DNA of 64,000 nt. Source: a virus. Below the pieces are notes generated by a model, which was given only the letters and a program-made list of their open reading frames with translations, did no database searches and was not told the DNA's origin. The translations under genes were made by a program, and so were the position numbers. Below are positions 21,664 to 62,412 of this stretch, in pieces (position 1 is the stretch's first letter; each line of letters opens with the position of its first letter). The stretch lies in IMG/VR virus record IMGVR_UViG_3300037089_000505, positions 32,001 through 96,000 of that record. One strand, written 5' to 3'.

Positions 21664-22113
21664 ATGAACTACTTTCAGAGACTCTGGACAAAAACGCCAC
21701 TCAGTAACAAGATCACGCTGGCTGTTTTGGCCCTTGTCATAGATCTCATTCCGATTTTCTGTCTTTGTTGGAGTCTATCACTTCCGCCGGGATCGAAGTA
21801 CCAAACTTTTGACATTGTAGTCAGTGTAATTGCCGTTCCCCTCTTTCTCCTTGGAATCCCATTTGCCTTGTCTGCCCAGGATCTAGCTCAGATTGAAAAG
21901 CGAGAGAAGGAAGTGGCCAAAGATCAGCAAGACTTTCTCAACGATGAAGACGGCTACTTGGAAGGCATGGCCGAAAGAGTCATCACAGAGATTGAATTTG
22001 ATATGGAGATTAAGGAGCTCACTGATTTACAAAAACGGAAATTCGTCAACAAGATTCTTTACAAAATAGTTTCACACTTCAGGGGTTTAGGAAAGGAGAA
22101 GGAAAAGATATGA
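21664..22113 (+). CDS. membrane protein (2 TM)
   Basis: two hydrophobic segments followed by a charged tail. Confidence 0.65.
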   Translation: MNYFQRLWTKTPLSNKITLAVLALVIDLIPIFCLCWSLSLPPGSKYQTFDIVVSVIAVPLFLLGIPFALSAQDLAQIEKREKEVAKDQQDFLNDEDGYLEGMAERVITEIEFDMEIKELTDLQKRKFVNKILYKIVSHFRGLGKEKEKI

Positions 22114-22940
22114 TCAAGGATTTCACGGGCCTCATCAACGCGACGACCATCAGCATCAGGAACTTTACTGACTGTGCGGTCCTCGGACTCTCAGGCGGAG
22201 CTGACTCGACGCTAGTGGCCATTCTTTCCGCCATGGCTTTGGGCCAGGAAAACGTCTACGGAATCGGACTACCCTACAGCGATCTTGACAAGCAGACTTT
22301 CAATTCACGGTCGGCACGGATCGCCCACAGGCTGAACATTCACTACCTGGAAATCCCCATCAAGAAGCAGGTCGACGCTATCATCGAGTCGCTCAAGTGG
22401 GATGATGACCATCCCATGGAGCTCGATGCCATTCAGTTGGGCAACATCAAAGCTCGAGTCCGAATGGCCACGCTCTACGGCCTGAACGGAGCCTTCTCGG
22501 ATGAAGGAACTCGGTACCGTGTCATAGGCACTGGGAACTTCAGCGAGGACTTCATCGGCTACGATACCAAGGGTGGCGATGCTCTTGCCGACATCTTCCC
22601 TATCGGTTGTCTTTTCAAGAGTGAGGTCTATCAGCTTCTCGATCATTTCATTTCTCAAGGATTCATCGAAGAAGACCTTGTCGACCGGGTTCCGAGCGCC
22701 GGTCTCTGGGAAGGCCAGACAGACGAGGGTGAGCTCGGTCATACCTACGCTGACATGGAACCCAAGATCGTCCAGCTCGTCGATGCTTACAAGGATGAGA
22801 TTGGAGAAGTCCAGACTGATGCTCTGACAGAAGATGTCCGCCTGAGACACCTTGCCAACAAGCACAAGCACATGGCTCCTCCGGTTCTCAACCTTCGCAA
22901 GTTCTGCGAATGGAACGATCCGACTGGCTATTTCGCATAA
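22110..22940 (+). CDS. nadE: NH3-dependent NAD+ synthetase
   Basis: LGLSGGADS, GNIKARVRM..LY, GTGN.SE..IGY.TK.GD, K.EVY.L, PSAGLWEGQTDE.ELG..Y. Confidence 0.95.
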   Translation: MIKDFTGLINATTISIRNFTDCAVLGLSGGADSTLVAILSAMALGQENVYGIGLPYSDLDKQTFNSRSARIAHRLNIHYLEIPIKKQVDAIIESLKWDDDHPMELDAIQLGNIKARVRMATLYGLNGAFSDEGTRYRVIGTGNFSEDFIGYDTKGGDALADIFPIGCLFKSEVYQLLDHFISQGFIEEDLVDRVPSAGLWEGQTDEGELGHTYADMEPKIVQLVDAYKDEIGEVQTDALTEDVRLRHLANKHKHMAPPVLNLRKFCEWNDPTGYFA

Positions 22941-22947
22941 CACTTTG

Positions 22948-22979
22948 AGCTGAGGTTGTAAAGCTTTACAACCTCAGCT
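22948..22979. terminator. perfect 32-bp palindrome after nadE (hairpin/terminator-like)
   Basis: AGCTGAGGTTGTAAAG|CTTTACAACCTCAGCT. Confidence 0.65.
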
Positions 22980-23303
22980 TCGTTTGGGAGAAAAAGAAAA
23001 TGGATTGGGACGATATCGATGATGGTGATCACGTTCGACACATAATCACAAAAGAAGAAGGCATTGTCATTAACGCCGATCCGTTCTTTGAACTCGGCGA
23101 GAAAGTGTGGGTGAAGTTTTGGGACCCAGTTAAAAGGAAATGGCGCAAAGAAAAAATTCATCCAGGCGAGGTGGAATGGGCATGAAGGCTTTGATCGAGC
23201 TTCTAACTGATTTTGCTAGAGAGCATCCTATCATCTTCTTTTTTCTCATGCTCCTTACAGCTATCGTCGGATGGCTGTTTATCACTCTATCTTTTATTCT
23301 TTA

Positions 23304-23324
23304 GTTTCGACAGGGATATATTAT
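23304..23324 (+). promoter_or_regulatory. TCGA-N8-TAnnnT promoter (leaderless geometry)
   Basis: gttTCGA cagggata TATTAT, 5 nt to ATG 23330. Confidence 0.7.
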
Positions 23325-23329
23325 AAAGC

Positions 23330-23626
23330 ATGGACACAAAACGAACTTGCAATGCTTGCTGGTTTTACGAGAAGGATGGAACCAATTGGTTCGTTTCCAA
23401 AAACGCCGAAGTAAAGCCCAAGCCCAACCAGGAATGGTGCACACTGAACAACGCGCCCTGCCCGGCAGCTCGGACTTGCCCTTCTTGGATGACCACGGCA
23501 GGAACCAAGCCGATCATGAACGGATCTGATACAAAGACCAAACAGGAAGCAGCGGCTGCCAAGAAAGAAAAGAGGCGGCTCCGGAAACTAGCCAAGAAAG
23601 CTATCCTCGAAGGGAGTCGAGAATGA
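23330..23626 (+). CDS. Cys-containing basic hypothetical protein
   Basis: CNAC...WC.....C.....C; C-ending codon bias. Confidence 0.65.
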   Translation: MDTKRTCNACWFYEKDGTNWFVSKNAEVKPKPNQEWCTLNNAPCPAARTCPSWMTTAGTKPIMNGSDTKTKQEAAAAKKEKRRLRKLAKKAILEGSRE

Positions 23627-24456
23627 TCGTGGCCGTAATTGCCTATATCATCTTAGGCATCATTATGAGCGTTAAGCTTGAATCGGAAATCCTGGAATTT
23701 CCGCTGAGCTTCATAAGTCAAGACACCTATAGAAAGGCAATCGTATTGCCTATCTTGTTTTGGCCTTTTCTGGTCGGAGCTTCTTGGATCTATTTCGTTA
23801 GGAACGGAGAAGGAAATTGAAACCTTACGGAGTCAAAGTCATCCAGTCTCCCGACGTGGCCGATATCCAGGCTATGGGTGCCAAGTCCAGCACTGGAAAG
23901 TTTCCCGGTAAGAGCGGAGATTTTCATCCCTACAGCCGGACCAAAAACAAAAAGGCGATCCGCCAGTATTGGAAGAGCAAGGCCCGCCACCAGAAAATCG
24001 ACTTGGAGGATTAGATGGCCGAAGTTTTTAATAGCATCATGCGGGGGCTGGAAGAAGTCAAAGAAATACGGGCTGCCGATACGGCTCTTGAGCAAGATTT
24101 GAAATGGGCGGTTCAGATTCGCAAACTCCGCAAGGGTCTTGAACGATGGGAGAATCCCTACGTCATCGCAAAAATCCTCAAAATCCTGAAAAAAACTGGA
24201 ACCCCACTTTTCTGGTTCAGCATTGAGAGTCCGAACTGCCTTGAAGAAGAGGACAACGAGAATACTCTCCGAGAGGTTGTGAAGATGCTCAAGCACCACG
24301 TGAAATTCGTAAAGGGCGGGGGAAAAGTACCCACTGTCCAGGGAGTCCCTTTCAAATACGCCCACACCGTCACCTCCGATGATGAAACCAAAATCATGTT
24401 CACAGACATTTCTAACCTGGGCGATTATGTCATTTTCGACGACTAGGAGAGAAGAT

Positions 24457-24656
24457 ATGCCAGGATACATTGAAGACACCACGGGAATACACACGGTTTC
24501 ATAGCTGAAGAATGTGACACCTTGGATGCATCAGTGTTCACCGGAGATCAACTTCTTGAAAAATCAAATCGAGAAGGCTTGAAAATGTATCTCGATCGAT
24601 GGCAAAAGAAAATTATGGAATGGGAAGAAATGGCAAAAGAATTGGGGTACAAATGA
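24457..24656 (+). pseudogene. small gene interrupted by an extra AC dinucleotide
   Basis: AGGAG SD + ATG 24457; ACACAC at 24489-24494; deleting one AC gives a continuous ORF whose TGA overlaps the next ATG. Confidence 0.55.
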
Positions 24657-25027
24657 TACTCGGTCTTGATGTTCATGGAGTGATCGATAAAGAGCCTGAC
24701 AAGTACGCTGCTCTAGCACGTGCCGTTCGGTCGAAGAAGGGTGGCAAAGTTTATATCATCACCGGACAATCTGATACTCCCGAATTAAGAAATTTGCTAG
24801 ACAATCTCGGAATGACGTTTGATAGGCTCGTTTCAATTCAGGATGAGCTTATGGCAGTTAGTGCTCCCATCATGGGATACGAAGAAGGAAGACCAATCTT
24901 TCGTTCTCTTGATTGGGACGGCTTCAAAGGGTCATATTGCGCCCGCAATCATGTTGATCTAATGATTGATGACAGCCCAGAATATCGTCTTTATTTCACG
25001 ACTCCTTTCCTTTTAATAAACAAGTAA
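24653..25027 (+). CDS. HAD-superfamily phosphatase-like protein
   Basis: LGLDVHGVI (DxH variant), YIITG, K...C, MIDDS. Confidence 0.7.
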   Translation: MILGLDVHGVIDKEPDKYAALARAVRSKKGGKVYIITGQSDTPELRNLLDNLGMTFDRLVSIQDELMAVSAPIMGYEEGRPIFRSLDWDGFKGSYCARNHVDLMIDDSPEYRLYFTTPFLLINK

Positions 25028-25029
25028 AA

Positions 25030-25050
25030 CTTTCGAAAGCGAGGTATAAT
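25030..25050 (+). promoter_or_regulatory. TCGA-N8-TATAAT promoter (leaderless geometry)
   Basis: cttTCGA aagcgagg TATAAT, 6 nt to ATG 25057. Confidence 0.75.
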
Positions 25051-25056
25051 AAAGAT

Positions 25057-26289
25057 ATGGAAACACGCGGAGATAAGTCACTCATCATGGTCACCGCTGA
25101 CAACAACAACAAATTTTACAAGATGCATGATAATACCGATGGAACCTTCACGGTGAAATACGGTCGGGTCGGAGTCACTGAGACGACTATGAACTACCCC
25201 ATAAAGAAATGGGATTCCATTTACCGAGACAAGACCGGCAAAGGTTATCGGGATGTTACGGAGCTTCGGGCCGAGAAGACGGTCAACAACAGCAATGGCA
25301 ACACCCCGAGTTTCGCCGACATCAAAATCGCCCAGATCAAATCTCTGGTCGCCACTCTCCAGTCCTATGCGAAGAAATCAGTCACCGAGAACTATACGGT
25401 CACTTCTGAGGCAGTCACTCAAGCCCAGGTCGACGAAGCACAGTCTGTTTTGGACCGGATCACCACTCTGAAGGTCACCGATACCAAGATCCTCAATGAC
25501 ACCCTCCTGGAACTCTACAAGGTCATTCCCCGAAGAATGGCCAACGTCAAGCATCACCTCTTCGGTCTGGAAGAGGGACTTGATAGCAAGCCGGACATTT
25601 TCAAAAGGACAATTGAGACCGAGCAAGCCACTCTGGACGTTATGAGAGGCCAGGTTTCTACTAACACCAAGACCAAGGACGTTTCTAACAAAGCCAACCA
25701 GACACTGCTCGAGGCCATGGGGCTGGAAATCGTTCCCATCGAAGATTCGGATCGGCAGATCATTCTCAAACTTCTCGGCCCCAACAGCCGGCAATTCCGT
25801 TCGGCCTTCAAGGTGATCAACGTCAAGACTCAAGGCCTCTTTGATAAGAAACTGGTCGAAGTCACCAACAAATCCACCAACCTTTTTTGGCACGGCTCTC
25901 GCAACGAAAACTGGTGGTCCATTCTGGACTCCGGCCTCATGATCAGGCCTTCCAACGCCATCTACACTGGGTCCATGTTCGGAGATGGAATCTACTTCGC
26001 CGATAAGGCTCAGAAGTCTATCGGCTACACTTCTCTTCGGGGAAGCTACTGGGCCGGTGGCGGAAGCAACAAGGCTTACCTGGCAGTCTTCAATGTCCAT
26101 ACCGGAAACTGGCTCAAAGCTCAGAGGCACGAGTCCTGGATGTACGAACTGACTGAGAAGAAGCTGAAAGCCCGGGGCGCTTACGATTCTTTCTTCGCTC
26201 TCGACGGAGCTGATCTCCGGAACAATGAATACATCGTCTACAACAAGGCACAGTGCACCGTCCAGTACCTGGTCGAGATCGGAGACTAA
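25057..26289 (+). CDS. poly(ADP-ribose) polymerase: WGR + helical regulatory + catalytic domain
   Basis: NNNKFY...YGRVG...K..KGY (WGR); LY..IPR; FWHGSR.ENW.SIL..GL, G.MFG.GIYFA....KS.GY, NNEYIVY (H-Y-E triad). Confidence 0.92.
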   Translation: METRGDKSLIMVTADNNNKFYKMHDNTDGTFTVKYGRVGVTETTMNYPIKKWDSIYRDKTGKGYRDVTELRAEKTVNNSNGNTPSFADIKIAQIKSLVATLQSYAKKSVTENYTVTSEAVTQAQVDEAQSVLDRITTLKVTDTKILNDTLLELYKVIPRRMANVKHHLFGLEEGLDSKPDIFKRTIETEQATLDVMRGQVSTNTKTKDVSNKANQTLLEAMGLEIVPIEDSDRQIILKLLGPNSRQFRSAFKVINVKTQGLFDKKLVEVTNKSTNLFWHGSRNENWWSILDSGLMIRPSNAIYTGSMFGDGIYFADKAQKSIGYTSLRGSYWAGGGSNKAYLAVFNVHTGNWLKAQRHESWMYELTEKKLKARGAYDSFFALDGADLRNNEYIVYNKAQCTVQYLVEIGD

Positions 26290-27395
26290 ATTGATCCGAT
26301 ACGGAATCTACAACACAGAAGTCGGAACCATTACCGAGCTCCTTGCCGACGAGGGCGACACAATCACTATTCGAGCAAAAAACGGTTTTGCAAAATCAAG
26401 AACTATCAAGATTGAAGACTTGGTTGCTTTACTCGAAAAAAACTCTACTCTAAAAAGAGCTGGAGAGATCTTGGCTAAAAAGCTCCGGACGGTTCAAGGC
26501 CTTCAAGTCGGAGATGCTTTCTTAAATTTCGAAGATGAATTGCTCGCATGGGAAAAGGCAAAATGAAATGGCTATCTTTTTAGCACTTCTACCGGCTGCA
26601 ATTCTCTGGAAGCTCTTCGCCTATTTGGTCGTCCTGCTACTCTGGGGAACTATGTGCTTCTTCGTCGGAAGGTGGACAAAGTGAAAGCCTTCGACAGCGA
26701 CATAGTATCAAGCGAAGGGAAGAAATAAATGGCAACCTGGCGGTCATGGTCAAAAAAGCGATGGAGTGAGGCTGGATTCGCTCGCGCACCAGAACACGAG
26801 GAAGATGCAAAGAGGATGGCGCTCGCTGCTATTCGCAATATTTCTATGTCCGAGTTCATGGCTATTCTTGGTCGACCCAAAGAGGAATATGCCGGTCATG
26901 GCTCTGAGCTCTACAATGCTATTATCAATCCCACGATCCGGCGAGAAATGGTTCTGAAAGCATTTTTCGGAAACAAGATTCCTGACATGAAAATTCATCG
27001 ACACAAGACCGTTTGGGTTTGCCAGGATTGCGCAGACGTCAATCACGGCCTTCTGCTCACCAACGGGACAAAAATGCTCTTCACAGAGTGCTCCGATTGT
27101 AGCCAGATGAAACCCTGTATAGACATCGAGAAGTAATAAGGAGAAGACAAATGAGAATTCTAATTGGCCTTGATGAAAAGGCTCTAAAGGAAGCGTTGAA
27201 GAATGGCGGCCCCGTAGTTGTTGTTGATACTGCTGAAACGCCAGTTTCTCTCGTAATTACTGAGGGCGAGATTGAGGACATTTCGTCTATGAAAGGGCAG
27301 AAAGACGATCAAGAAAACCCCATTGATACTTACAATCTTTTTCCAGAGAGCATGTCTGAAAAAGAGTTCAACCAAATCATGAAGGAGACAAAGAA

Positions 27396-27871: not shown

Positions 27872-28249
27872 AACGATCTTTTATGGTTATAGTAAAAGAA
27901 AAGTCTTGGGAAATCTATTGGCGACTACAAGAATCATGGTTTTGGAAATTCTATCGGTGGTTCACACCGTCCTGGCTATCTTATGTTTTCGAGAAGAGAC
28001 GGGGAGGTAATGACACGCCATGGTTGACAGTCATTCACTGTCGGGTCATGGGTCATCCAAATGGCGAAGTGTTCTACAATCTCGGTGGCTCTGAGCCTAA
28101 TCATCATTGTAAAGATTGCGGCGAGGATATAGGATAATGAATCGTGACTGGCCCACAATTGAAGACGTTGAAAAGGGTAAGATGTCTGACCTCTCTCACT
28201 GGTTCGTATTGTTACCCAACGCTGAAACTCCAGAGCAAGAAGCAATTGT

Positions 28250-29800: not shown

Positions 29801-29816
29801 CTTCTTGGAGGCGCAC

Positions 29817-30713
29817 ATGTTTGAAGAGATAGGTAAATTCATCGACCATCTTCCCACAGCTGTTGTGAAATTCACAGATGCAGTTGCCAAGGGACTTGAA
29901 AAGAATATGTCCCTTTGGCTTTTGATTATTTTCAATGCCTATCTCCTGGGTGGTATTACTTGGACAATCGTCACATCTGTGGCTGTTGGATGGTGGCTGT
30001 TGCTCGCAATACTTCCTATACTACTCGCAATACCCTATGCGATTGCTCTAATCAGGAAGATAAGGAGTCACCATGAAAAGACTGTTTAATTTACTAGTCA
30101 TAGCCATTTTGGTAGCTTTACCTTTTGTAGCATGCGGTGTAGCTCCATCTGATCCAACGCCGAAAGTTCCAGGCTTACAAGCACAAAATCTCCCGTCGAG
30201 TTTCGTATTTGTTGAAGCCAAAGGTAATTACTATTACATCTATAAGGATGAAAATGGCTATTACCTCATCCATCAGGATTCTACATTTGCCCAGAGCGTT
30301 CATATCACTTGGCTTGGTACTACGATTCATTAAAGCATCGAGACATATATTCTTTTAGTAACTGGAGGACCAAGATGTTTGCTGAAGCTTTCAAAGCTAT
30401 CGGTGAAGCCATAGACACGTTCTTCAACGTCGTGCCCAAGGCTATCGTAGATTTTTTCAGGGCTATGTACAAGAGCGATGCTTTTCAGAAAATGCCTTAT
30501 TGGTTTCTGATCGCTTTCGCTGTCTTCAATCTTGTATTTGTTACTTGGGATATTATCTATATAATCAACACGGGCCTTATCTGGTTTCCGTTCCTGGCGG
30601 CGCTTCAACTTTTTATTGCCTCGCCCTATGTGGTCGGCTTGATCAGGAAGATGCGCCAGGGAAATGTGATTTCCAGTCTGATTTCAAAGCTGAAGGGAAA
30701 GAAAGATGTCTGA
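29817..30713 (+). CDS. two paralogous 2-TM proteins (29817-30089, 30375-30713) flanking a lipoprotein (30073-30333)
   Basis: shared F..IG..ID...P.A.V.F and PY...LIRK.R; lipobox-like FVAC. Confidence 0.65.
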
Positions 30714-31746
30714 AAGAAAACTCGCTTCAATCCAGAGGATCGCCAAGATCGAGCCCATCGAGGGCGCCGACGCAATCGAGCGTCTTTCCATTCTCGGCTG
30801 GCATTGCGTAAGCCAGAAGGGCACCTTCAAAGAGGGAGACCTTTGTGTCTACTTTGAAGTGGACTCTTTGCTTCCTGTGAAGCCGGAATATGAATTTCTT
30901 CGCAAGAGTTCGTTCAATCCTCGGCTCAATGGTTTCCGCATCACGACCATCAAACTTCGGGGTCAGATTTCGCAGGGTCTTGCCCTTCCCTGGAAAGAAT
31001 TGGAATTTGGCGACCAGAACAACATTGTCGAAGGAGCTAACGCAACAGAAGCTCTCGGCGTTCGGAAATACGAGCCCGAAATTCACCCCTCTCTCATGGG
31101 CGATGTGAAAGGCAACTTCCCATCTTACGTTCCCAAGACGGACGAGGAAAGAATCCAGAACGTTCCCAACGTTCTTACCCGCCATGCCGACAAACTCTTT
31201 GTGGCGACAGAAAAGCTGGATGGAACCTCTACTACCTTCTTTGTCTTTGAAGGAGAATTCGGAGTTTGCGGAAGAAACTGGGAACTCAAGCCGACTGAAA
31301 AGAACACCTACTGGGAAGTGGCAAGAAAGATCGATGCTGAGCTCAAGCTCAAGAAATCCGCCTGGAAGAATGTCGCCGTCCAGGGCGAAATCGTTGGACC
31401 CGGAATCCAGAAGAACAAATACGCTCTTTCTGAGTTCAAGTTCTTCGTCTACCATGTATTCGACATCGACGCCTACAGGTACTTCAACCACTCCGCGCTG
31501 ATGCATTTTTGCAAAGCCAATGGTTTTGACACAGTGCCTGAGGTTGCAGTAGATTTCCACCTGCAGGACAAAATGCCCAATGTGGAAGCAGCCGTCAATT
31601 TCTCTAACGCCAAATCGCTTCTCAATCCTGTCATCATGAGGGAGGGTGTGGTAGTCAAGTCGGCTATAGAGAACATTGATCCTGAGCTCGGGCGACTTTC
31701 ATTCAAAGTCATCAATCCCTACTTCCTACTCAAACACGAGGAATAA
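30706..31746 (+). CDS. ATP-dependent RNA ligase, DRB0094/Rnl2-type with N-terminal OB domain
   Basis: RKLASIQ.I..IEPIEGAD.IE, KLRGQISQGL, PKTDEERIQN, motif I EKLDGTS, QGEIVG.GIQKN.Y, REGVV, SFKVI. Confidence 0.93.
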   Translation: MSERKLASIQRIAKIEPIEGADAIERLSILGWHCVSQKGTFKEGDLCVYFEVDSLLPVKPEYEFLRKSSFNPRLNGFRITTIKLRGQISQGLALPWKELEFGDQNNIVEGANATEALGVRKYEPEIHPSLMGDVKGNFPSYVPKTDEERIQNVPNVLTRHADKLFVATEKLDGTSTTFFVFEGEFGVCGRNWELKPTEKNTYWEVARKIDAELKLKKSAWKNVAVQGEIVGPGIQKNKYALSEFKFFVYHVFDIDAYRYFNHSALMHFCKANGFDTVPEVAVDFHLQDKMPNVEAAVNFSNAKSLLNPVIMREGVVVKSAIENIDPELGRLSFKVINPYFLLKHEE

Positions 31747-34751: not shown

Positions 34752-35543
34752 ATGAAATATACAATCGTCCTATTTTTCTTTTTTTGTGCGTCAATAGTTT
34801 TTGCTCAAGATGGCCCACTACCAACAGCCTTACCAGCTGATAGAGAAATAATTCCTATTTTAATCTATCACGCAATCCGTCCAGTAAGACCCACTGACAC
34901 GCCCTTTGTATTGAATTACGTTTGCACACCTGAAACCCTAGAAAAAGAATTGTCCTTCTTAAAAGCGGCCGGATACACTTCAATAAGTTTTGCCGATTTA
35001 GTAGCACACTTTAAAAGCGACAAGCCTTTACCAAAAAGCCCAATCATCATTTCTTTTGATGACTCATGGGAAGATCAATATACATACGGCGTTCCTCTTC
35101 TAATAAAGTATGGATTCAAGGCCACTTTCTTTATTATTGCCGGCGCTATGGGCGCTCCATATTACATGACTTGGGATGAAGTAAAAATGCTAAGTTCTAT
35201 GGGAATGGAAATTGGCGGTCATACTTGGTCTCATCCTTACCTCGTACAAATTCGCAGACTTCCAGTTTTAGATAAAGAACTTGTATATTCGAAGAAAGTT
35301 CTTGAGGACCAGATTGGAAAACCAATTACTGCTTTTGCTTATCCGTATGGACTTTACAACGATGTGCTAATAAATCTACTCAAGAAAGCCGGATACACAA
35401 GCGCTCGAACTACTTATCCAGGCATTGCTCATTCTGAAAAGGATCTGTTCAATCTCACTGGTCTTATCAGGACTGAGAATATGGCATACTTCACTAATGA
35501 CTTGAATGAGTATTTTAGTGAATACGAGGACATCGCGAAATAG
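34752..35543 (+). CDS. exported polysaccharide deacetylase (CE4, PgaB/IcaB-like)
   Basis: signal peptide; PILIYH, ISFDD, ATFF, EIGGHTWSHP, FAYPYG. Confidence 0.9.
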   Translation: MKYTIVLFFFFCASIVFAQDGPLPTALPADREIIPILIYHAIRPVRPTDTPFVLNYVCTPETLEKELSFLKAAGYTSISFADLVAHFKSDKPLPKSPIIISFDDSWEDQYTYGVPLLIKYGFKATFFIIAGAMGAPYYMTWDEVKMLSSMGMEIGGHTWSHPYLVQIRRLPVLDKELVYSKKVLEDQIGKPITAFAYPYGLYNDVLINLLKKAGYTSARTTYPGIAHSEKDLFNLTGLIRTENMAYFTNDLNEYFSEYEDIAK

Positions 35544-50014: not shown

Positions 50015-50748
50015 GGAGTTAAAATGAAAAATTCAAAGAATCATTGGACTGATGACGAAGGTTGGATGCATGATGATTTGACAAAGAGGCCGGGTAGTGT
50101 GGGTTATGCTATTGAAAAATACATGCGACAGATTACTTCAATAGATGACGTAGATGAACTTAGAAAACTCTTTTTTGATGTAGTCATGGATCCAATAGAG
50201 ATTCAGGGCACGAGCGAAGAGAAGAAGCAAGTCTATATGGAAAAGGCTAATAAGATTGACGATGTAGATGATTTGAGAGAGTTCATATTTGCTATTCATG
50301 GCCGAGCAAAAGATTACAAAAGAAAGCTGGCAAGAAAGTGACATTAGACGCACAAGGTTTTAATCGGGAGCCGGGCTGGAGAACTTACACTCTAGTTGGA
50401 CTTGACATCTTTTTAGGAGCAATCTTTATACTCCTAAAATGGTGTGGAATAATTAATTGGAGTTGGTTTATTGTGTTGCTACCCTTCTATTGGCTTCCGG
50501 CCATCTGCTTATTACTTCTTGCGATGGCCATGACAGCCATTCGGTTCGCCGACGCATATAGAGAAATAGAAAAGGTGGTGGCAAATGGAAAGACTAACGG
50601 CGGGACAACTAAAGAAAATTCTAGAAAGAGTCCCTGATAACGCAGATGTGGTCATTCGTGAAAGGGGTAAGGATCTTTTTATCAAATTGGCCTTCGCTTG
50701 GCAATATGAAAATAAGTGCGAAGCTTTGGTGTTAGTAGAGACAGAAAC

Positions 50749-51309
50749 ATGCCCGTCTATACCAGATGTTTGAAATGTCCCTTGGGACAATACCGCGAAG
50801 TAAATGGCTATAAAATCGTTTGGGGTGATGGTAATCTTTCGGCCCCTATACTTATTATTGGGGAAGCACCCGGAGAATCGGAAGCAAAGCTTGGACGTCC
50901 CTTTGTTGGTAGATCGGGACAGTTCTTACGACACCGATTAGAGCCATATATTGAGTTTCCAAAAGGGTGCTTCATCTCTAACACTTGCCTATGTCGGCCT
51001 CCAGACAATCGTAAACCAACCATAGAAGAACAAACTTCTTGTTCTTCACATATACACACCATGTTATTCACAATGCGACCAAAATTGATCATTACAGCGG
51101 TCAAAGTTGCATCAGATTATTTGAGCATACTTCTAGGTAGGTCATACACAATCTACTTGGCCGAAGCCGCTGAGCTAGAAGACTTAGTTTTTGTATGGTT
51201 GCCTATTTATCACCCGTCTTATGTAATGAGAGCCAAAGAGACGACGGCTACGTTTGAAAATACATTAAGATCATACGCAAAGCTATTCAAGAGTATAGGA
51301 GATTTCTAA
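50749..51309 (+). CDS. uracil-DNA glycosylase, family 4
   Basis: C..C.L, IGEAPG..E...GRPFVG.SG, N...CRPP.NR.P..EE...C, YHPS. Confidence 0.9.
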   Translation: MPVYTRCLKCPLGQYREVNGYKIVWGDGNLSAPILIIGEAPGESEAKLGRPFVGRSGQFLRHRLEPYIEFPKGCFISNTCLCRPPDNRKPTIEEQTSCSSHIHTMLFTMRPKLIITAVKVASDYLSILLGRSYTIYLAEAAELEDLVFVWLPIYHPSYVMRAKETTATFENTLRSYAKLFKSIGDF

Positions 51310-52915: not shown

Positions 52916-53773
52916 ATGTTTGCTCTCAAAGTAAATGACAGAAACTCCAAGGAGTCACAAGCTCTCGCCTATTACAACATGATGGATGGGGTGGGACTCC
53001 AATATTTTCGTAAAGCTGAAGAAGTCCCACCTGATGCTGTTCCTGCTGGTTCGGTAGAGTGGTTTCTTGAAGTCACAAGATGGAAAGTTATACCTGATTA
53101 TTATCCAGAATTTCTCAGACCATATCTCGGCCGTAAAATATGGTGGACAGACCAATGGCCGATGCATGGTGGGATCTTCGTCAAGCCAGCTGACAAGTAT
53201 AAACGCTTCACAGGCAAAATAACTACTGGTGGATATCATGGCAAGAAGAAGGGCCCATACTGGTGCTCTGAGGTTGTAAGCTTCACCAATGAGTGGCGCT
53301 TCTATGTAGCGAATGGAAAGGTTCTATATATTGGTTGGTATTGTGGTCTTAACGACGATGCAATGCCACCCGATCTTAAAGTCGATTGGCCCCAAGACTA
53401 TTGTGGTGCTGTAGATTTTGGGACCACACCTGAAGGCAAGCTACTTCTCATTGAAGCTAATGAACCATTTTCCTGCGGATGGTATGGTCACATTTCAGAG
53501 GGCCGCATTTATGGGAAGTGGTTAGAAATAGGCTACGAGTATATGAAGGAGAAAATGAAAAAGGGAACTGACGGCACTGCTGGTGCTTGGGCTTTAGAAA
53601 AAGGTGAAGACGGAAGAGTCTATATTAGCGCAGACGATCTTGGATTTTGGATCGAAGAAGCATTAAACTACACAGATGGTGCCGGAGCAAGTCTATCAGA
53701 CGATGCTAAATCCAAATTACTCAAACATCTTTATGAGCGGATCAAAGAGATAGCAGAGAAGGCTGTTCTGTGA
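52916..53773 (+). CDS. ATP-grasp domain protein (R2K-like)
   Basis: DYYP..L..YLGR, FVKP...KRFTG, SEVV.F..EWR.YV, DFG, LIE.N. Confidence 0.75.
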   Translation: MFALKVNDRNSKESQALAYYNMMDGVGLQYFRKAEEVPPDAVPAGSVEWFLEVTRWKVIPDYYPEFLRPYLGRKIWWTDQWPMHGGIFVKPADKYKRFTGKITTGGYHGKKKGPYWCSEVVSFTNEWRFYVANGKVLYIGWYCGLNDDAMPPDLKVDWPQDYCGAVDFGTTPEGKLLLIEANEPFSCGWYGHISEGRIYGKWLEIGYEYMKEKMKKGTDGTAGAWALEKGEDGRVYISADDLGFWIEEALNYTDGAGASLSDDAKSKLLKHLYERIKEIAEKAVL

Positions 53774-54234: not shown

Positions 54235-54239
54235 AAACT

Positions 54240-55580
54240 ATGGACGAACTTAAACAACTGAACAAACTGGTCACCGAACTCAACACCACGAACTCCACCA
54301 CAGACAAAACTGAGATCCTGGCCAAGTATCCGGAATGCAAAAAACTCCTGAGCTGGACCTATGATCCCTTCATCCAGTTCTACGTCAGCTCGGACAACAT
54401 TCTCAAGATGGAAAGCCAGATCAAACCCAACGGAGTTCATACCGACATCTTCGGCCTCATGGCTGAACTCAACTCCAGAAAGTATACTGGCCACGATGCC
54501 ATCGCCTACATCCTTCAGTTCATTTCCGAAAACAAGATTTACCGGGATCTCATCCTCCGCATACTCGATCGGAACCTCAAGACTCGGGCCGATGCCAAAC
54601 TCATCAACAAAGTTTGGCCGGGAACAGTCCCTTCTTTCGAAGTGGCTCTGGCCCACAAATACAACGACTTCAAACAGAAGGTGGATTTCACCAAAGACAC
54701 TTGGTTCGCTTCCAGAAAACTGGACGGAGTCCGGGTCATCACGGTCATCTCCTCAAACGGCGATATCAAATTTCTTTCCCGCAAAGGAAAAGAATTCACC
54801 ACTCTGGACAATGTCCGCAAAGAGCTCCAGAAGAAACTCGAACCATATCGCAATGACTTCGATTTCTTCAAGGGCGGCTTGGTTCTCGACGGAGAAATGT
54901 GCATCGTCAACCAGAACGGCGATGAAAACTTCACGGACATGATCAAGCTCATCCGCCGGAAGGACTACACGGTCGAACATCCCAAGTATAAGATCTTCGA
55001 TATGATGCCTTTGGTAATCTTCGAAGAGAAAGAACCACCCAAAGGAATTCGCAATATCAGGCTGACTCATCGAATCAATCTCATCAACCTCTTCAAAGAT
55101 CAGGGCATCTTCAATGGGGGCATCTTGGACCCGGTGGAGCAGAGGAAGATCGGAACCGAGAAAGACCTCACTGACTTCATGGCTGAAGCCAATTCCAAGA
55201 ATTGGGAAGGACTCATCCTCCGGAAGGATGTCCCCTACAAGGCCGGCCGCTCTTCGGATATGCTCAAGGTCAAGGAAATGCAGGACGATGAATTCGTGGT
55301 CCAGGACGTGGAGATGGGGCCCATCCGGATCATCAAGGGCGGCAAGGAAGTCACCGAGACAATGCTCTCCGCCATCAAGATCCCTTACAAAGGTAACGTG
55401 GTCTCGGTCGGATCTGGCTTCTCCATCCAGCAGAGACAGGAATTCTACAAGGATCCTTCTAAGATCCTGGGCAAAACGGTCACCATCAAATACTTCGAGG
55501 AAACTATCAATGAGCAGGGGCTCTACTCCCTCCGGTTTCCGGTCCTCAAGACCATCTACGATGGAGACCGGGATGTTTAA
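54240..55580 (+). CDS. ATP-dependent DNA ligase
   Basis: motif I KLDGVR, SRKGK, LDGE, IFD, WEGLILR, R...MLKVK, VGSGFS, SLRFP. Confidence 0.95.
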   Translation: MDELKQLNKLVTELNTTNSTTDKTEILAKYPECKKLLSWTYDPFIQFYVSSDNILKMESQIKPNGVHTDIFGLMAELNSRKYTGHDAIAYILQFISENKIYRDLILRILDRNLKTRADAKLINKVWPGTVPSFEVALAHKYNDFKQKVDFTKDTWFASRKLDGVRVITVISSNGDIKFLSRKGKEFTTLDNVRKELQKKLEPYRNDFDFFKGGLVLDGEMCIVNQNGDENFTDMIKLIRRKDYTVEHPKYKIFDMMPLVIFEEKEPPKGIRNIRLTHRINLINLFKDQGIFNGGILDPVEQRKIGTEKDLTDFMAEANSKNWEGLILRKDVPYKAGRSSDMLKVKEMQDDEFVVQDVEMGPIRIIKGGKEVTETMLSAIKIPYKGNVVSVGSGFSIQQRQEFYKDPSKILGKTVTIKYFEETINEQGLYSLRFPVLKTIYDGDRDV

Positions 55581-57999
55581 AGAAACTCTAAAAACAGTCC
55601 TTGCTATTTTTGCCATCGTAATAATGGCGGCGCTTCTCCTCTTTCTTCTTTGGACTGTTTTTCATCCAATCGACCGTTTTGTCGGGACAAAAATACAGGC
55701 AGTAGAAAATGTCTAAGGCAAAGCGATCTGAGCTCATCAAACTGATTGAGCGGGCAGTAATAGTTCAGGGCGTCACAAAGACTTGGCTTGAGGATGCGGT
55801 CCTCGTCTTAAAGAAGGAATCGAAATGAAGATGAGAAATGGAATGGAAATCAAGGATCATATCAGTATCACTATGGACAAGGAAGAATATGAACAGGCAG
55901 CCGGGGTCGAGCTGACTGATCGGCAGTGGCAGTCGGTGGTCCGTAGGATTCGGGATCCCAATCGGTCCGAGCTTTATAGCATCCTGAATCATATCACTGG
56001 CGTCATCAACGAAATGAGGAGGAAGTAATGGGGACTAGAACCAAGATGCTTCGGCTCCAGAGAATGGGGCTGATGGAGGAAAGACGCCAGGATCGGCTCA
56101 GAGCATACTGGCTCGCCGAACGAGACCGCACTGAGAGAGAGCAGGGCTACGCAATGCACAAATTCTATGAAGATCAAGCGCAGAAGCGGCTCGCAGAGGA
56201 AAAGGCAAAGAGGTTGTCTACCCGCATTCGGAAGTGGTGGAATGGGCTCTTCTTCAAAGACGCCTCTATTCCTTGCGGCATCGGAATCGATCACAAAGAG
56301 GATATGCCTCCGGAGGGGAAATGACACTTTCAGACAAGATCTTCAGATTCATAGCCGTCCTCATTGTCGTCGCTCTTTCTTTCGGCGGCGTCTTTTTTAT
56401 CGACGGTCTCCTCACTGGAGATTGGCCGACCAAACACGATCCCAGTATCACCTTCAACCTCATCGGCAGCCAGGTCTACACTTACCATTCGGTAGGTACT
56501 ATTGTTATCAATCCTCATTTTACCGTAGAAGGAAGTGATAAGCCGGGAGTTCCTGCTATTCAATATAGCGACAAATATTGGTCAACCGATAAAGAACATC
56601 CCGAAAATGACAGTACGACTCTTCTCGTTTCTGACTCTGAAAAGGTATTTATTCCTCGGCGTAATTACGTCTTGACTGACTCTAAGGGCAAAAGCTTTTA
56701 TTCAAACGGACCTTTGGTTATCACGCCCAATGACGTCATAAATGGTCGAACAGCTCCGACCATTCGTTTTCAAGAGAAAGGCAAAAATCCGAACTACGCA
56801 GCCGTCTTTATTCTCAGAGGCAAAGCTTTTGTGGAGGTGGCAAAATGATGTTCTTAAAAATTCTTTGGGGCGTTGTAAAGATCGCCCTCATAGCACTACT
56901 CATAGCGCTAGCCGCAGTAGTATTCGTTGCCATCTTTGGCAGCCTATCCTTTGTATGGTTTGCTGTTTTGGCGATCATCTACATCATACTGCTGATCACT
57001 GGCATAATTTTTCTTGTTCGGTGGTTGGCTGAAAAGGGCTGGTTCGATGAGTTTCTTTTTTAAGAAAGGAAGGGACATGAAAGCTTTTTACTCGAATCAC
57101 GAGAGCCGCATTTTGCACATTGCGGGGCTTGTAGCGATTGCTGTTATATTCATCGGTATCTTGGGACTCGTAATATGAAAAGGCGCTACAGGATCTTTCT
57201 CGTAATTGTTATTTTGCTCACCTTGGGCAATATCTTCATGTTGGTCATAAGCAATAATTGGCCAGGAAGAGTTTCCAGTATCATAGGATGCGCCGGCGGA
57301 ACTGTAGCGGCAATAGCTTGTATTCGATTAATGAAGAGCGCAGTTGACTGATTTCTTTTTCAGAGAAAATCAATTAACGCTCCACAAATATTATCGCTTT
57401 CAGATTTCTAGATGGGAAGCTGATTGTAGAAAGTTAGCTGCATTTCGCATATGGAACTATAAGAAGACTGATCTTGCTGGATTTGGGTTTGTCCTTGAGT
57501 TACTTGGTTTGAACATCGTCCTTGAATTTTACGACAACAGGTATTGGGATCGCGAACACGACCGCTGGAAGAGGAATAAACATGAATCCGAATATTAAAC
57601 CAGTCCTTGACGACGCAGCAAAACTGATCGACGCAGACTCTGGCGGAATGAAGCTCATGGAGCTCTTGCCAGCTATTCTCGTGATTCATAGAAACATCGA
57701 TCCTGATGACTTGATCGACGGGCTCAAATGCGATTCTCGTTTCAAGGTCTTTGAATACTATTGGCGGCTTGACGACAATACTTTGCGTCTCAAATATTTC
57801 GTGACCTTGACTTACAAATAGGAGAAACTATGTCAAACTTGTTTTTTCAGCTTTTTTCCTTTTTCCTTTTTCTCTTCATTGTTGCTGTTGTCCTTTACTT
57901 GACGATAATGCTTTCAGCGATCTTTGCCGTAATTGTTCTTTGTGTTCTAGTTGTCATGTGCATTATTTATCCGATCTATCTTTGGTTTAAGAGGTAAAA

Positions 58000-58419
58000 A
58001 TGGAGCAGCATCCAAGAAATCCATACGTAGCAGTAGACGCCATCATCCGGGTGAAAGGTGGCGCTAAAATCATTTGTATCAAGCGCAAGAACCCTCCATA
58101 TGGTTTGGCTCTTCCTGGGGGTTTTGTCAATTACGGCGAAAGCGCCGAAGATGCAATCAAACGAGAAGTGATGGAAGAAGTCGGCGTCCGGTTAGATCTC
58201 CTGGCCCAGTTCCATACTTACTCGGCACCTGACAGGGATCCTCGTCATCACACACTCAGCGTAGTATTCATCGCTTGGTCAGAGGATGAACCGAAAGCGG
58301 GAGACGACGCCGCTGAAGTCCTTCTTGTCAATACGCTTGATATTCCAAAGCTTGAGTTCGCTTTTGATCACGCAAAAATCCTAGAGGACTGGAGAGGACT
58401 CGGACAGTATCGACACTGA
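58000..58419 (+). CDS. Nudix hydrolase (ADP-ribose pyrophosphatase-like)
   Basis: ALPGGFV..GES..DA..REV.EE.G Nudix box, P.RDPR, AGDDA, AFDH. Confidence 0.92.
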   Translation: MEQHPRNPYVAVDAIIRVKGGAKIICIKRKNPPYGLALPGGFVNYGESAEDAIKREVMEEVGVRLDLLAQFHTYSAPDRDPRHHTLSVVFIAWSEDEPKAGDDAAEVLLVNTLDIPKLEFAFDHAKILEDWRGLGQYRH

Positions 58420-58427
58420 TTTATTAT
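58407..58427 (+). promoter_or_regulatory. TCGA-N8-TAnnnT promoter
   Basis: gtaTCGA cactgatt TATTAT, then GGAGG SD and ATG 58447. Confidence 0.65.
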
Positions 58428-58966
58428 AAAGGTAACGGAGGAAGCAATGGTCAAAGATTTTTTCTGGAACCTGTTTTGGAAGCCGGTAAAGTCAAATCTG
58501 ATACTGGCAGCTCTTTTCCTTGTAGAGATTTTCTGGTTTCTTGTCCTGGAATGGGAGCGATGGATCCACATCGCATTTCTCATCGGAACTGGCATTCTTT
58601 CAATCTACCTCAACGATGGCCGTTACTTCGTGGCGGCTGCCGGTGGGGCCACAGTCTACAGTCTCCTTTGGTTCAAGCTGGCCGTCTCGAAACGGTGGTA
58701 AACTAGAGGCGGCAGAGATCTGGGCCGGTGGAAACACCGGCCTTCTTTTTACGAAAGGAAGCAGAGATGGCTACCTTCTTACGTTTCATGGTTTTTATTG
58801 TCATGGGCGCTGGGGGTCTTTTCCTGGGCATCTTTTTAGTATATCTTGCCTGGACGTTTCTACCCTTGATACTTTCTATTTTCGCAACAGTCATAGCATT
58901 TGTGCTTTGGTGCTGGGGAGTAGTTGAAGTCGGGGCATGGGTCATAATTTCGGCATAGGAGAGACA

Positions 58967-59737
58967 ATGACTGATTCACTTGGCGATAGGATGAAAGGCA
59001 ATTACGAAAACCGTTCTCGGTTTTACCTGACTCGAAGAACGCCTGTCATCATTCGTGTAGATGGCCGAGCCTTTCACACTCTGACTCGCAACTGCGAAAA
59101 GCCCTTTGATGAGAGTTTGAGCAAATGCATGATCGAGACTACGATCGGACTCTGTGAAGAGATTCAAGGCGCAAAATGTGCCTACGTCCAAAGCGACGAG
59201 ATCTCAATTCTGATTACCGATTATGATCGTCTTAGCTCTGGCGCCTGGTTCGACTACAACCTCCAGAAGATGGCTTCGGTCTCAGCTTCCATCGCCACTC
59301 TAGCTTTCGGTCTTTCTATAAGAAAAATCGCTGGCGATTGGAACGATTGGAAAAGTCAAGCCAAAGCTACATTCGACTCTCGCGTTTTCAATATTCCGAG
59401 AGAAGAGGTGACCAACTATTTCGTTTGGAGACAGCAAGACTGGACTCGCAACAGCCTTGAAATGCTGGCTCGAGCCCACTATTCACACAAACAGCTGGAC
59501 AAAAAGAATGGTGCAGCAATGCACGAGATGCTCCACGAGAGGGGCGTCAATTGGGCGGATCTCCCTGACAAGTGGAAGAATGGAAGTCTCATTGTCAAAG
59601 AGTCTATTCTCATAGACCTGAATCAGGACATGGTAGCTTCAAACATGCGGTCTGAGTGGAAGCCGAAAGATCCATGTCCCATTTTCAAGAACGACCGAGA
59701 CGCTATCGAGAAGCTTCTCATACCTGAGGAGGTATAA
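58967..59737 (+). CDS. thg1: tRNA(His) guanylyltransferase (Thg1-like)
   Basis: LGDRMK..YE, IRVDGRAFH..T, KPFD, YVQSDEIS, FDSRVF, YF.WRQ.D..RNS. Confidence 0.93.
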   Translation: MTDSLGDRMKGNYENRSRFYLTRRTPVIIRVDGRAFHTLTRNCEKPFDESLSKCMIETTIGLCEEIQGAKCAYVQSDEISILITDYDRLSSGAWFDYNLQKMASVSASIATLAFGLSIRKIAGDWNDWKSQAKATFDSRVFNIPREEVTNYFVWRQQDWTRNSLEMLARAHYSHKQLDKKNGAAMHEMLHERGVNWADLPDKWKNGSLIVKESILIDLNQDMVASNMRSEWKPKDPCPIFKNDRDAIEKLLIPEEV

Positions 59738-61185
59738 CATGTCAAAGAAAGAACTTGAACCGGTCGAGCTCATCGACATCACGATCAAGGCTTTCGCTCA
59801 CGGAGCCCTCATTTTCGAGAAGAGCTACCGCAACATCCAATACACTCTCGACTATGATGATCAGCTCACTGAAATCCAGATCACTGATAGTCTCGGCAAG
59901 ACAAAGACCCAGTCATTTTTCAACGTCGCCGTCATCGTCACAGAAGACTGAAATGACTTTTGATTGGGTTAAAGGCGAGCCGCCGAAAGAATCAAATAAG
60001 AAATGGCTGATTGAAATTCGGCCAGAATTTTTCGGTGGTTCACAGAAGGATTCTGAATACATAGTCATTTCATGGAATCCCATAACACTTTACTATTTGG
60101 ACTGGCTGGGACATGTAGTTGAGCCTTTCTATATCGCAAGACATGTAGAGTTGGAGGTCTAAAATGAAATGGCTTATGTATCGCGATCGCCATAGCTCTG
60201 GCGTCTCGCACTGGATTTATCGGCCACTCTACGTAGATAAGATCACAGACGATCTCAAAAAAGACTGTGAAGAAAGCATGCAGGAAAAGTCCAATGAATG
60301 GAATTGGTCTGATCACTTCCGAGGCATAGAGTGGAAAATCGTTGACACTCGGCATGTCTCAATGAAAGCTATTGCAGCTACTTTGATCGGCATGAAACGA
60401 TCGGTAAACTATCACAAGATTGCTATCAAAGACCTCAACGGTCAAATCCCTCAGATCTTATCTCTACTGGATAACGGCAAGGGTCGCAAAACTGACCCTG
60501 ATGATATCGAGCAGGCACGTCGAGACAAGCAGCGAGCCAAGAGCATGAGGGACTTTCAAAAGCGACAGGCGAAAGGAAAATAACATGGCAATATTCGGAT
60601 GGATCCTTATAGCCCTTATCATTTTCTTTTTAGCCCTTTGGTTACCGAAGAACTTAGCCACTTATTTGGCAAAATCATGGTTTGAAAATAACTACCCAGA
60701 TTGGGCTAATCTTCTCCCGTCCTATAATCGCATGTTCTGGAACCCTCGCCGATGGACAGTAATGTCGTGGTTGAGTTGGCTTCAGAAAAAATTGACCAAA
60801 CAGCTTGCTGAAGTTGAAAAACAAATCAATCTTGCTGAAGTCATAAGCAAAGATCCCGAGTTTGCTTCACGACTTGTCAGCTCGGGTGTGTATGATCAAA
60901 TCCAGCAATGGATCAAGTCTCCTGCAGGTCAAGAATTCAAGAAAGTCGTAGACGAAATCAACAAAAAGGGAAAAAATGACTAAGATCATAAACTGGCTCT
61001 CTAAAAGAATTGATGAAATGAGCCAACAGGGCTATTGGTATTTTGTTCTCATAACTGCCTGGTGCATCGGCTGGATCATTGCCGATATTGCAACCGGTGG
61101 ATGGCCTTGGGCTATTGGACTCGCAATCATCTATATACCCTTCGTGATTGCTTTTTATAGAAAAATTCGCAAGAAGAAATCCTGA

Positions 61186-61206
61186 GCTTCGACAAAACGA
61201 TAGTAT
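61186..61206 (+). promoter_or_regulatory. TCGA-N8-TAnnnT promoter
   Basis: gctTCGA caaaacga TAGTAT; predicted +1 at the AAGGAG SD of pncB. Confidence 0.65.
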
Positions 61207-61224
61207 CAATCAAAGGAGAGCTAA

Positions 61225-62412
61225 ATGCCAATAACGCAGTCTCTGCTTAATACCGACCTTTATAAGCTGTCAATGGCTCAAGCGGCTCTTCATCAATTTC
61301 CTGGAGCAGAGGTTGAATATGCTTTTAAGTGTCGTAATAAAGCGCATTGGACTCCAGAAATTGTAGCTGCTATCAACAAAGAAATAGACGATCTTTGCTC
61401 CCTACGATTTACACAAGAGGAGCTTGAATTTCTTTCCCGTATTCGGTATCTCAAAAGAGACTTCCTTGATTTTTTGAGTCTCACACAATTGAATCGAAAG
61501 CATATCAAAGCATGGCTCGATGAAAATCAAGAACTTCAAATTCGTATTAAAGGTAATTGGTTTTTGACTATCTTATTTGAAGTCCCCGTCCTTGCTATCG
61601 TCAATGAAATCTACAATCAATTCACCTATCCCAACGTTGGCCCATTTGTAGGTGGACGTGGTCGCCTTGAAGAAAAAGCAAAGCTGCTCAAAGCCTATCT
61701 TTCAAATGGAAATCTACTCTACTTTAGTGACTTTGGAACACGGCGACGATACTCCTTCCATTGGCAAAAGGAAGTAGTCAAATTCTTGAAAGACGAATTT
61801 GGGCCGTCTGGAGTTTTCACTGGAACTTCAAACGTTCTTCTGGCAAAGACTTTCGGTCTCCGGCCTATTGGCACCATGGCCCACGAATGGATCCAGTGCG
61901 GTCAGGCAACTGGAGTCAGACTCATTGACTCGCAAAAAAGAATGCTTCAGGCCTGGGTAGACGAATACCGTGGCGACTTGGGCTATGCACTTTCAGATAC
62001 ACTCGGCACTGATGCTTTCGTCAAAGACTTCGACCAGTACTTTGCCAAGCTCTACGACGGAGTGAGACAAGACTCTGGTGATCCAATCGCTTGGGGGCAC
62101 AGGATCATTCAGCACTACAAAAAATTGGGCGTTGACCCCAAGACAAAGTCGCTCATCTTTTCAGATTCATTGGATTTTCCAAAGGCCATCAATATCAATG
62201 AGACTTTCAAGAATCAAGCCAAAGTTTCATTCGGTATCGGCACTTATCTGACCAATGATATTGAAGGAATTGAGCCACTCAACGTAGTAATCAAAGTGGT
62301 CAGGTGCAATGGCCAGCCGGTTGCAAAACTTTCTGACTCACCGGGCAAAGGCATGTGTGAGGATCAGGATCACGTCACATACCTCAAGAAGGTTTTTGGC
62401 ATCAAGGAGTAA
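61225..62412 (+). CDS. pncB: nicotinate phosphoribosyltransferase
   Basis: SLL.TDLYK..M, DFGTRRR.S, GTSNV, GTMAHEW (phospho-His), GVRQDSGDP, FSDSL, FGIGT.LTND, KLSD.PGK. Confidence 0.95.
   Translation: MPITQSLLNTDLYKLSMAQAALHQFPGAEVEYAFKCRNKAHWTPEIVAAINKEIDDLCSLRFTQEELEFLSRIRYLKRDFLDFLSLTQLNRKHIKAWLDENQELQIRIKGNWFLTILFEVPVLAIVNEIYNQFTYPNVGPFVGGRGRLEEKAKLLKAYLSNGNLLYFSDFGTRRRYSFHWQKEVVKFLKDEFGPSGVFTGTSNVLLAKTFGLRPIGTMAHEWIQCGQATGVRLIDSQKRMLQAWVDEYRGDLGYALSDTLGTDAFVKDFDQYFAKLYDGVRQDSGDPIAWGHRIIQHYKKLGVDPKTKSLIFSDSLDFPKAININETFKNQAKVSFGIGTYLTNDIEGIEPLNVVIKVVRCNGQPVAKLSDSPGKGMCEDQDHVTYLKKVFGIKE

Follow-up and report, generated by a model that had tools for sequence, protein, structure and literature searches.

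NAD+ (nicotinamide adenine dinucleotide) is a central battleground of bacteria and phages, and three routes by which phages rebuild it have been proven experimentally: NARP1 (Adps and Namat) and NARP2 (Nampt and a bifunctional Nmnat/Nudix) (10.1101/2024.02.11.579819), and NARP3, made of PnuC and NadR (PMC13464706). None of the three uses nicotinate, and the NARP1/NARP2 paper mentions neither nicotinate nor PncB nor NadE; no phage NAD+ reconstitution route with experimental proof beyond these was found in the literature searched. A sequence survey reported complete salvage or Preiss-Handler pathways in 174 of 668 gut jumbo phages, and Kuafu_71 has a pncB-nadD-nadE cluster (Li et al. 2024, Microbiome 12:268, PMC11662467). 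Here, genes of the same deamidated route are described from a window of 64,000 nucleotides, bases 32001-96000 of a single linear IMG/VR virus contig of 143,947 bp (IMGVR_UViG_3300037089_000505; 40.6% G+C, CheckV completeness 63%) that belongs to an uncultured, T4-like phage. The first-pass annotation of the window had presented these genes as a distinct route; as a claim to something undescribed this did not hold, Preiss-Handler jumbo phages, one pncB-nadD-nadE cluster included, having been published by Li et al.

As judged from its genes, the phage harbors a real and co-inherited partial Preiss-Handler set, composed of pncB (61225..62412), nadE (22110..22940) and a Nudix hydrolase gene (58000..58419), all on the + strand (window coordinates). 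We consider it fairly probable that this set is a partial, dispersed version of a widely recurring viral NAD+ salvage module, which would boost NAD+ re-synthesis, serving a phage-encoded PARP and/or buffering NADase defences.

The product of pncB (395 aa) is predicted to be a true nicotinate phosphoribosyltransferase. It matched PF17767 (NAPRTase_N, 122.6 bits) and PF04095 (254 bits), and scored 464.4 bits against the TIGR01514 equivalog model (cut-off 269.55). Its best solved relative was PncB2 of P. aeruginosa (1YIR, E 3.5e-123), which aligned end to end, including the IGTMAHEW histidine motif, and residues G216, T217, M218, H220 and E221 were invariant among 20 homologues. The histidine of GTMAHEW is presumably the autophosphorylated residue that couples ATP hydrolysis. 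The contig contained no other PF04095 gene and this one is of the PncB type; therefore, neither NadV/Nampt nor Namat is encoded in it, in agreement with the first-pass call of a GTMAHEW-type nicotinate phosphoribosyltransferase as opposed to NadV/Nampt.

The product of nadE (276 aa) was likewise recognized as the NH3-dependent NAD synthetase that had been called at this position. It scored 156.5 bits against PF02540 and 144.5 bits against TIGR00552 (cut-off 63.65), and displayed the PP-loop GLSGGADS at residues 26-33. NAD_synthase was the sole significant domain, with no fused glutaminase (nitrilase-like) domain, a separate glutaminase subunit not having been searched for. An enzyme of the Francisella type, acting as nicotinamide mononucleotide (NMN) synthetase, would change the route to nicotinate > nicotinate mononucleotide (NaMN) > NMN > NAD+, and would require NadM or NadR instead of NadD. 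The phage protein does fall into the group of short NadE enzymes to which the Francisella one (3FIU, E 2.5e-24) belongs, no NadD was found in the contig, and NadM-Nudix-like fusions accompany PncB and NadE in several viral clusters. However, its best matches were archaeal-type and Campylobacter NadE (P. horikoshii 2E18, E 8e-32, and C. jejuni 3P52), the archaeal NadE of M. jannaschii is an NAD synthetase strictly using nicotinate adenine dinucleotide (NaAD), without NMN synthetase activity, and the Francisella NMN synthetase is an exception restricted to its lineage (PMC3376133). Given this strict use of NaAD by archaeal-type relatives, we regard the NMN synthetase role as very improbable; an adenylyltransferase would be needed either way, so that this role would also leave the missing step unexplained.

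The Nudix hydrolase (139 aa; PF00293) showed a perfect Nudix box, G41-x5-E47-x7-R55-E-V-M-E-E-V-G-V63 (GX5EX7REUXEEXGU), and probably acts on ADP-ribose or a related dinucleotide. It had first been annotated as ADP-ribose-pyrophosphatase-like. The Nudix part of that assignment was clear and the ADP-ribose type was recovered only in part, as the NCBIfam matches all stayed far below their cut-offs; the top ones, to the best characterised relatives, the Nudix domains of NrtR (listed as 'NtrR') and of NadM-Nudix, reached 41 bits (cut-off 400) and 33 bits (cut-off 397), respectively. The NadM-Nudix protein 2QJO matched at E 2e-6. Closest among solved structures was an uncharacterised Aquifex protein, 2YYH, annotated as an 8-oxo-dGTPase domain, and the best PHROG match was a generic MutT/NUDIX hydrolase family. 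In other viral contigs, homologues with 43-47% identity were located between PncB and NadD (G024 and G025), and further homologues were in one frame with NadD-like domains (G017, G026, G028 and G029).

Co-inheritance of the three genes was displayed by the closest viral PncB relative, and the sole close one, on a 112-kb contig (IMGVR_UViG_3300037086_000474, hereafter G001). Only 12 proteins were common to G001 and the phage contig (tblastn), and five of them were PncB (69% identity), NadE (63.5%), Nudix (56-59%), RtcB (60%) and the product of the open reading frame (ORF) that follows pncB. These five genes were confined to 91.8-101 kb of G001, where PncB, NadE and Nudix were all found within 9 kb and RtcB was placed between PncB and NadE. 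The set is thus compact in G001 and scattered here at similar divergence, which indicates co-inheritance, and on these grounds, together with their recurrence as neighbours in viral contigs, pncB, nadE and the Nudix gene appear to be functionally linked. At the DNA level, pncB and nadE had no match among the GenBank phages, and relatives were detected at protein level only.

Independent acquisition of three unrelated genes, with the Nudix protein being a house-cleaning (MutT-like) or RNA-decapping enzyme, would fit their scattering over 40 kb of accessory DNA, as well as the annotation of 2YYH and the generic PHROG match. It was already disfavoured, and we hold it to be improbable: all three genes were kept at similar divergence in G001, which otherwise has almost nothing in common with the phage, Nudix homologues of other viral contigs lay among NAD salvage genes or were fused to them, and the motif is shared.

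This motif was searched as the pattern TCGAMNNNNNNNTAKWMT (TCGAM-N7-TAKWMT). Seven sites, all on the + strand, were found in the window (18121, 23307, 25033, 26691, 28253, 58410 and 61189), against 0.56 expected, and nine more elsewhere in the contig, adding up to 16 sites on the + strand and 0 on the - strand; 12 of the 16 had a called start codon 16-46 nt further downstream. One site (61189..61206, +) preceded the pncB start by 36 nt. Another (18121..18138, +) headed the nadE chain, 24 nt before its first gene, and a third (25033-25050, +) was found 24 nt before the PARP gene. The nadE chain itself (18145..22940, +) is a putative operon of 11 overlapping genes without gaps, of which nadE is the last; all junctions overlap by 4-56 nt, and a gap of 199 nt follows nadE. 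A TCGA promoter common to pncB and the nadE operon had been claimed at first pass, and the motif was indeed upstream of both; it would work as a promoter, through which the set would presumably be co-regulated. In a generic promoter scan, matches were no more frequent than in shuffled sequence. On account of the 7 nt between TCGAM and TAKWMT, neither a sigma-70 nor a T4 MotA-type identity suited the motif.

A second promoter-like element was noticed inside the chain, where TATAAATA, which we take to be the T4 late-promoter consensus, occurred at 21640-21647, 11 nt upstream of a membrane ORF (151 aa, 21658-22113) whose end overlaps the start of nadE. One possibility is an internal promoter serving this ORF and nadE; octamers of this type numbered 8 on the + strand and 7 on the - strand of the contig, compatible with chance occurrence.

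The adenylyltransferase and nicotinamidase steps, already noted as missing from the window, were also missing from the rest of the available sequence. The search of the remaining genome for NadD/NadM/NadR, PncA and Prs that had been suggested with the first-pass annotation gave no match in the 144-kb contig, either to PF01467 (NadD/NadM/NadR, NMNAT) or PF00857 (PncA) at E<=1, or to Prs (PF13793; Prs-like Adps) at E<=0.1, and PnuC (PF04973) was not found at the latter threshold either. As the contig is about 63% complete, this absence holds for the sampled 144 kb and not for the whole phage. Two complete genomes showed that PncB can adjoin NadE with no PF01467 gene anywhere (G004, 168 kb, and G018, 139.6 kb with terminal repeats, both rated 100% complete), so a set without NadD can be complete as it stands. 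A PF01467 gene was present, on the other hand, in 7 of 9 near-complete viral genomes having both PncB and NadE, so that the missing third of the phage may well hold one.

The ORF directly 3' of pncB (62416..62826, +, 136 aa) was considered as the missing NadD or PncA and rejected, as it encodes a small membrane-anchored protein without informative relatives. No Pfam or PHROG match was obtained for it, and its nearest Atlas clusters were viral hypothetical proteins, with scores all below the reliable level of the tool. Its G001 counterpart occupies the same place after pncB (28-29% identity, E 3e-16), a case of conserved neighbourhood. Hydrophobic stretches read in the translations predicted small membrane proteins on both sides of pncB (60977-61186 and 62416-62826).

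Co-occurrence of the genes across phages, whose lack had been named beforehand as a possible refutation, was observed in several datasets in addition to the co-inheritance with G001. Among GenBank phages, NadE was present in 8 of 14 PncB-bearing records, compared to 39 of 50,697 records overall. In IMG/VR, a single-protein query found one PncB relative, and an alignment query reached 224 viral contigs with PncB. Whole records were counted for 48 of the best 80 PncB contigs, 12 of which were at least 90% complete: NadE was encoded in 30 of the 48 (9 of the 12), a PF01467 adenylyltransferase in 20 (8 of the 12), a PncA-type isochorismatase in 23 and a homologue of the phage Nudix in 13.

Locus architectures were examined with family hidden Markov models within 10 kb of PncB, at 57 non-redundant viral loci obtained by dereplication at 90% PncB identity. 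PncA was found at 38 loci, NadE at 35, NadD at 17, Nudix at 15 and PARP at 2. The commonest architecture was PncA-PncB-NadE without NadD (14 loci, and 3 more also having Nudix), while a tight five-gene cluster PncB-Nudix-NadD-NadE-PncA was encoded in G024 (236 kb, 98% complete) and G025. One 35-kb genome with terminal repeats, rated 100% complete (locus L022, genome G013), harbored NadD, Nudix and PncB and no NadE; such a partial route would stop at NaAD. RlaP and CCA-adding enzyme genes were found repeatedly near PncB in other viral loci. In a quick PncB tree, the window protein, G001 and three metagenome proteins (63-80% identity) belonged to one clade of five, which was well supported. Cellular PncBs were intermingled with viral ones in this tree, and NadD presence was scattered over it, needing 11 changes, no better than shuffled labels.

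The only recognizable NAD+ consumer of the contig was a WGR-helical-PARP protein (25057..26289, +, 410 aa; PF00644 and PF05406), encoded 2.1 kb from nadE and preceded by the same motif. Its catalytic H-Y-E triad was intact when aligned to human PARP1 (LFWHGSR, GIYFAD and NEYIVY). No NAD-dependent ligase or macrodomain was detected in the 144-kb contig at E<=0.1, and the phage DNA ligase (54240-55580) is ATP-dependent. Elsewhere, a PARP gene was located 1.4-1.6 kb from PncB at two loci, L012 (G003) and L029 (G020), neither of which had a NadE gene less than 10 kb away; some phages may pair PncB with PARP.

A set that mainly feeds the NAD+ consumers of the phage (WGR-PARP), or that boosts the metabolism of a large phage in nutrient-poor peat, with no role in immunity, would be consistent with the intact triad, with the proximity and common motif of nadE and PARP, and with the two loci just mentioned. 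Of the 48 PncB-bearing viral records, 7 also had PARP, compared to 0 of 14 control cellular genomes, and NAD-jumbo phages also encode many NAD+-consuming enzymes (PMC11662467). Nevertheless, PARP was absent from 41 of the 48 records and from 10 of the 12 near-complete ones, and therefore cannot explain the module in general; the ATP-dependence of the phage ligase and the lack of an NAD-dependent ligase or macrodomain in the contig also count against this reading. A purely metabolic role is accordingly doubtful to us. The early suggestion that the route feeds the phage PARP had some support in this phage, where triad, motif and the PncB-PARP neighbours of two other contigs agree with it, and did not extend to most PncB-bearing records.

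In the mechanism that we propose for the salvage module, PncB would convert nicotinate, phosphoribosyl pyrophosphate (PRPP) and ATP to NaMN, which an adenylyltransferase, supplied by the host (NadD) or encoded in phage sequence not sampled here, would turn into NaAD. Phage NadE would then convert NaAD to NAD+ with ammonia and ATP. Nicotinamide released by NAD+ consumers would first be deamidated by PncA of the host or of unsampled phage sequence, and the Nudix hydrolase would release AMP and ribose-5-phosphate from ADP-ribose or a related dinucleotide, a step removing an NADase product and sending carbon back towards PRPP. The pncB gene, the nadE chain and PARP would be turned on together through one class of promoter-like motif. 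As a net effect, NAD+ re-synthesis flux would be raised in the infected cell, which would serve the PARP's own consumption and buffer NAD+ loss to NADase-type defences. We infer that the enzymes are active in vivo on these substrates, including that of the Nudix protein, that host NadD and PncA are relied upon, and that the phage benefits.

Feasibility of such a scheme is supported by bacteria. The pncB/nadD2/nadE salvage of P. aeruginosa neutralises a RES-domain NADase toxin (PMC11535050), and in E. coli, pncB has been overexpressed with the aim of a larger NAD(H) pool (PMC7437165). The jumbo phage PA5oct was reported to up-regulate the host pncA-pncB1-nadE operon on infection (PMC7318152).

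Several points weigh against the proposed salvage function. Two of the four steps of the route from nicotinamide were not found in the available 144 kb, and the genes lie 36-38 kb apart, with the set spanning 40 kb, and so do not form one operon. The route is also slower and costlier than NARP1 or NARP2, since making one NAD+ from nicotinamide takes four enzymes and several ATP. The substrate assigned to the Nudix protein is putative, its closest solved relative, 2YYH, carrying an 8-oxo-dGTPase annotation. The Apyc1-like neighbour of nadE argues only weakly for an anti-defence role, and no experiment on any phage Preiss-Handler set against a defence system was found in the literature search.

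An anti-defence role of the set is nonetheless plausible. In its narrower form, compatible with the salvage function preferred here, the set would be dedicated to counter-defence, as a fourth NAD+ reconstitution pathway rebuilding NAD+ from nicotinamide after Thoeris, DSR, SIR2-HerA, aRES or similar NADases have acted. That such defences can be overcome by rebuilding NAD+ is known from NARP1, NARP2 and NARP3, and fuller viral versions of the module have an additional enzyme for each of the two NADase products, PncA for nicotinamide and, putatively, Nudix for ADP-ribose. If only nicotinamide and PRPP are needed, the ADPR-1''-phosphate trick of aRES should leave the route unaffected, an argument already made for NARP2 (10.64898/2026.01.28.702374). 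The bacterial version of the route offsets the RES NADase mentioned above, and nadE shares one gene chain with the Apyc1-like gene. On the other side, the route takes four steps and consumes much ATP, PncA and NadD were not found in the available sequence, and the set occurs mostly in very large phages, which hold many metabolic genes regardless of defence (PMC11662467). Dedicated counter-defence is for these reasons a tentative possibility, which we rate below the broader salvage function. Sequence alone is compatible with counter-defence, with PARP supply or with both.

Other genes of the nadE chain included an Apyc1-like gene of the metallo-beta-lactamase fold (19804-20625; PF23023, 88 bits, cut-off 50) and a calcineurin-like phosphoesterase gene (20622-21188; phrog_547, 143 bits). 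The two overlap (19804-21188) and form a candidate anti-Pycsar or cyclic-nucleotide degradation pair. Kinship of the phosphoesterase with the phage phosphatases that counter aRES was rejected, because those known are macrodomain proteins (10.64898/2026.01.28.702374) and the contig has no macrodomain.

Almost all genes of the contig were carried on the + strand. The T4-like replication and recombination set comprised Mre11/SbcCD-like genes (2237-5075), a RecA/UvsX-like gene (6259-7371), a helicase (8286-9665) and a DnaB-like helicase (13571-14839), and a T4 baseplate protein was encoded at 1000-1920. The accessory region also encoded an R2K-clade ATP-grasp protein (52916-53773), a protein of the uracil-DNA glycosylase superfamily (50716-51309) and a polysaccharide deacetylase (34752-35543). 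RNA-repair genes were represented by a Thg1-like gene (58937-59737) and an RNA ligase with a PHA02142 OB domain (30706-31746), and the RtcB gene was located outside the window (contig 102247-103629). A PncB with 100% identity across 96% of the length (protein P0001) was recorded on 5 contigs, the longest of 310,676 bp; owing to this record, the phage may be a jumbo phage whose true genome is roughly double the present contig.

With PncB in 224 contigs of IMG/VR, the nicotinate route is widespread among viral contigs. That the viral PncB/NadE core, joined elsewhere by PncA, NadD and Nudix, constitutes a fourth phage NAD+ reconstitution pathway, leading from nicotinamide through nicotinate to NAD+, is in our view possible but rather unlikely on present evidence. 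If true, such a pathway would also work against ADP-ribose-spoiling defences such as aRES, because it needs no ADP-ribose, and the NadD-less form seen here and in G004 and G018 would mean that a phage need encode no more than the flux-limiting steps, NaMN being adenylylated by the essential NadD of the host. The phage described here leaves the knowledge gained from sequence surveys unchanged; it clearly exemplifies the minimal form without NadD, presumably co-regulated by a shared promoter-like motif in place of an operon and with PARP as a built-in NAD+ consumer, and is a reasonable construct for a first test. Its distinguishing features are the lack of NadD and PncA in the available sequence, the dispersal of its genes under a common motif, and an intact PARP whose gene is preceded by that motif too.

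Compared to the NAD-jumbo phages (PMC11662467), the phage shares pncB and nadE of the deamidated salvage alongside NAD+-consuming enzymes, and the evidence is purely bioinformatic in both cases. Jumbo phages with the complete Preiss-Handler pathway encode all of pncB, nadD and nadE, as a cluster in Kuafu_71, whereas here nadD was not found in 144 kb and the genes are dispersed over 40 kb in a T4-like phage and linked by a promoter-like motif, with a co-inherited Nudix as part of the set. Genomes of the NAD-jumbo phages exceed 200 kb; the present contig, with 144 kb at 63% completeness, would imply a full genome of roughly 230 kb.

Resemblance to NARP2 (Osterman et al. 2024; NadV/NatV in KVP40) lies in a PRPP-dependent phosphoribosyltransferase of the same superfamily, in a pathway-associated Nudix and in the aim of re-synthesizing NAD+ from a pyridine base. 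NARP2 takes nicotinamide directly with two proteins, whereas the phage set would take nicotinate, needs the amidation step of NadE, and came with no adenylyltransferase. With NARP1 and NARP3 the set shares the presumed outcome, NAD+ restored in the infected cell; substrates and chemistry differ, the contig having no Prs-like Adps, second phosphoribosyltransferase, PnuC or NMNAT-type domain. As for the NrtR-controlled pncA-pncB1-nadD2-nadE operon (NSPI) of Pseudomonas, the phage version is devoid of a DNA-binding NrtR domain, PncA and NadD in the available sequence, and its regulation is of phage type. The enzymes are nevertheless the same: phage PncB has PncB2 as its closest solved relative, the best NCBIfam match of the phage Nudix, far below cut-off, is the ADP-ribose-responsive repressor NrtR itself, and the bacterial route has been shown to offset an NADase toxin (PMC11535050).

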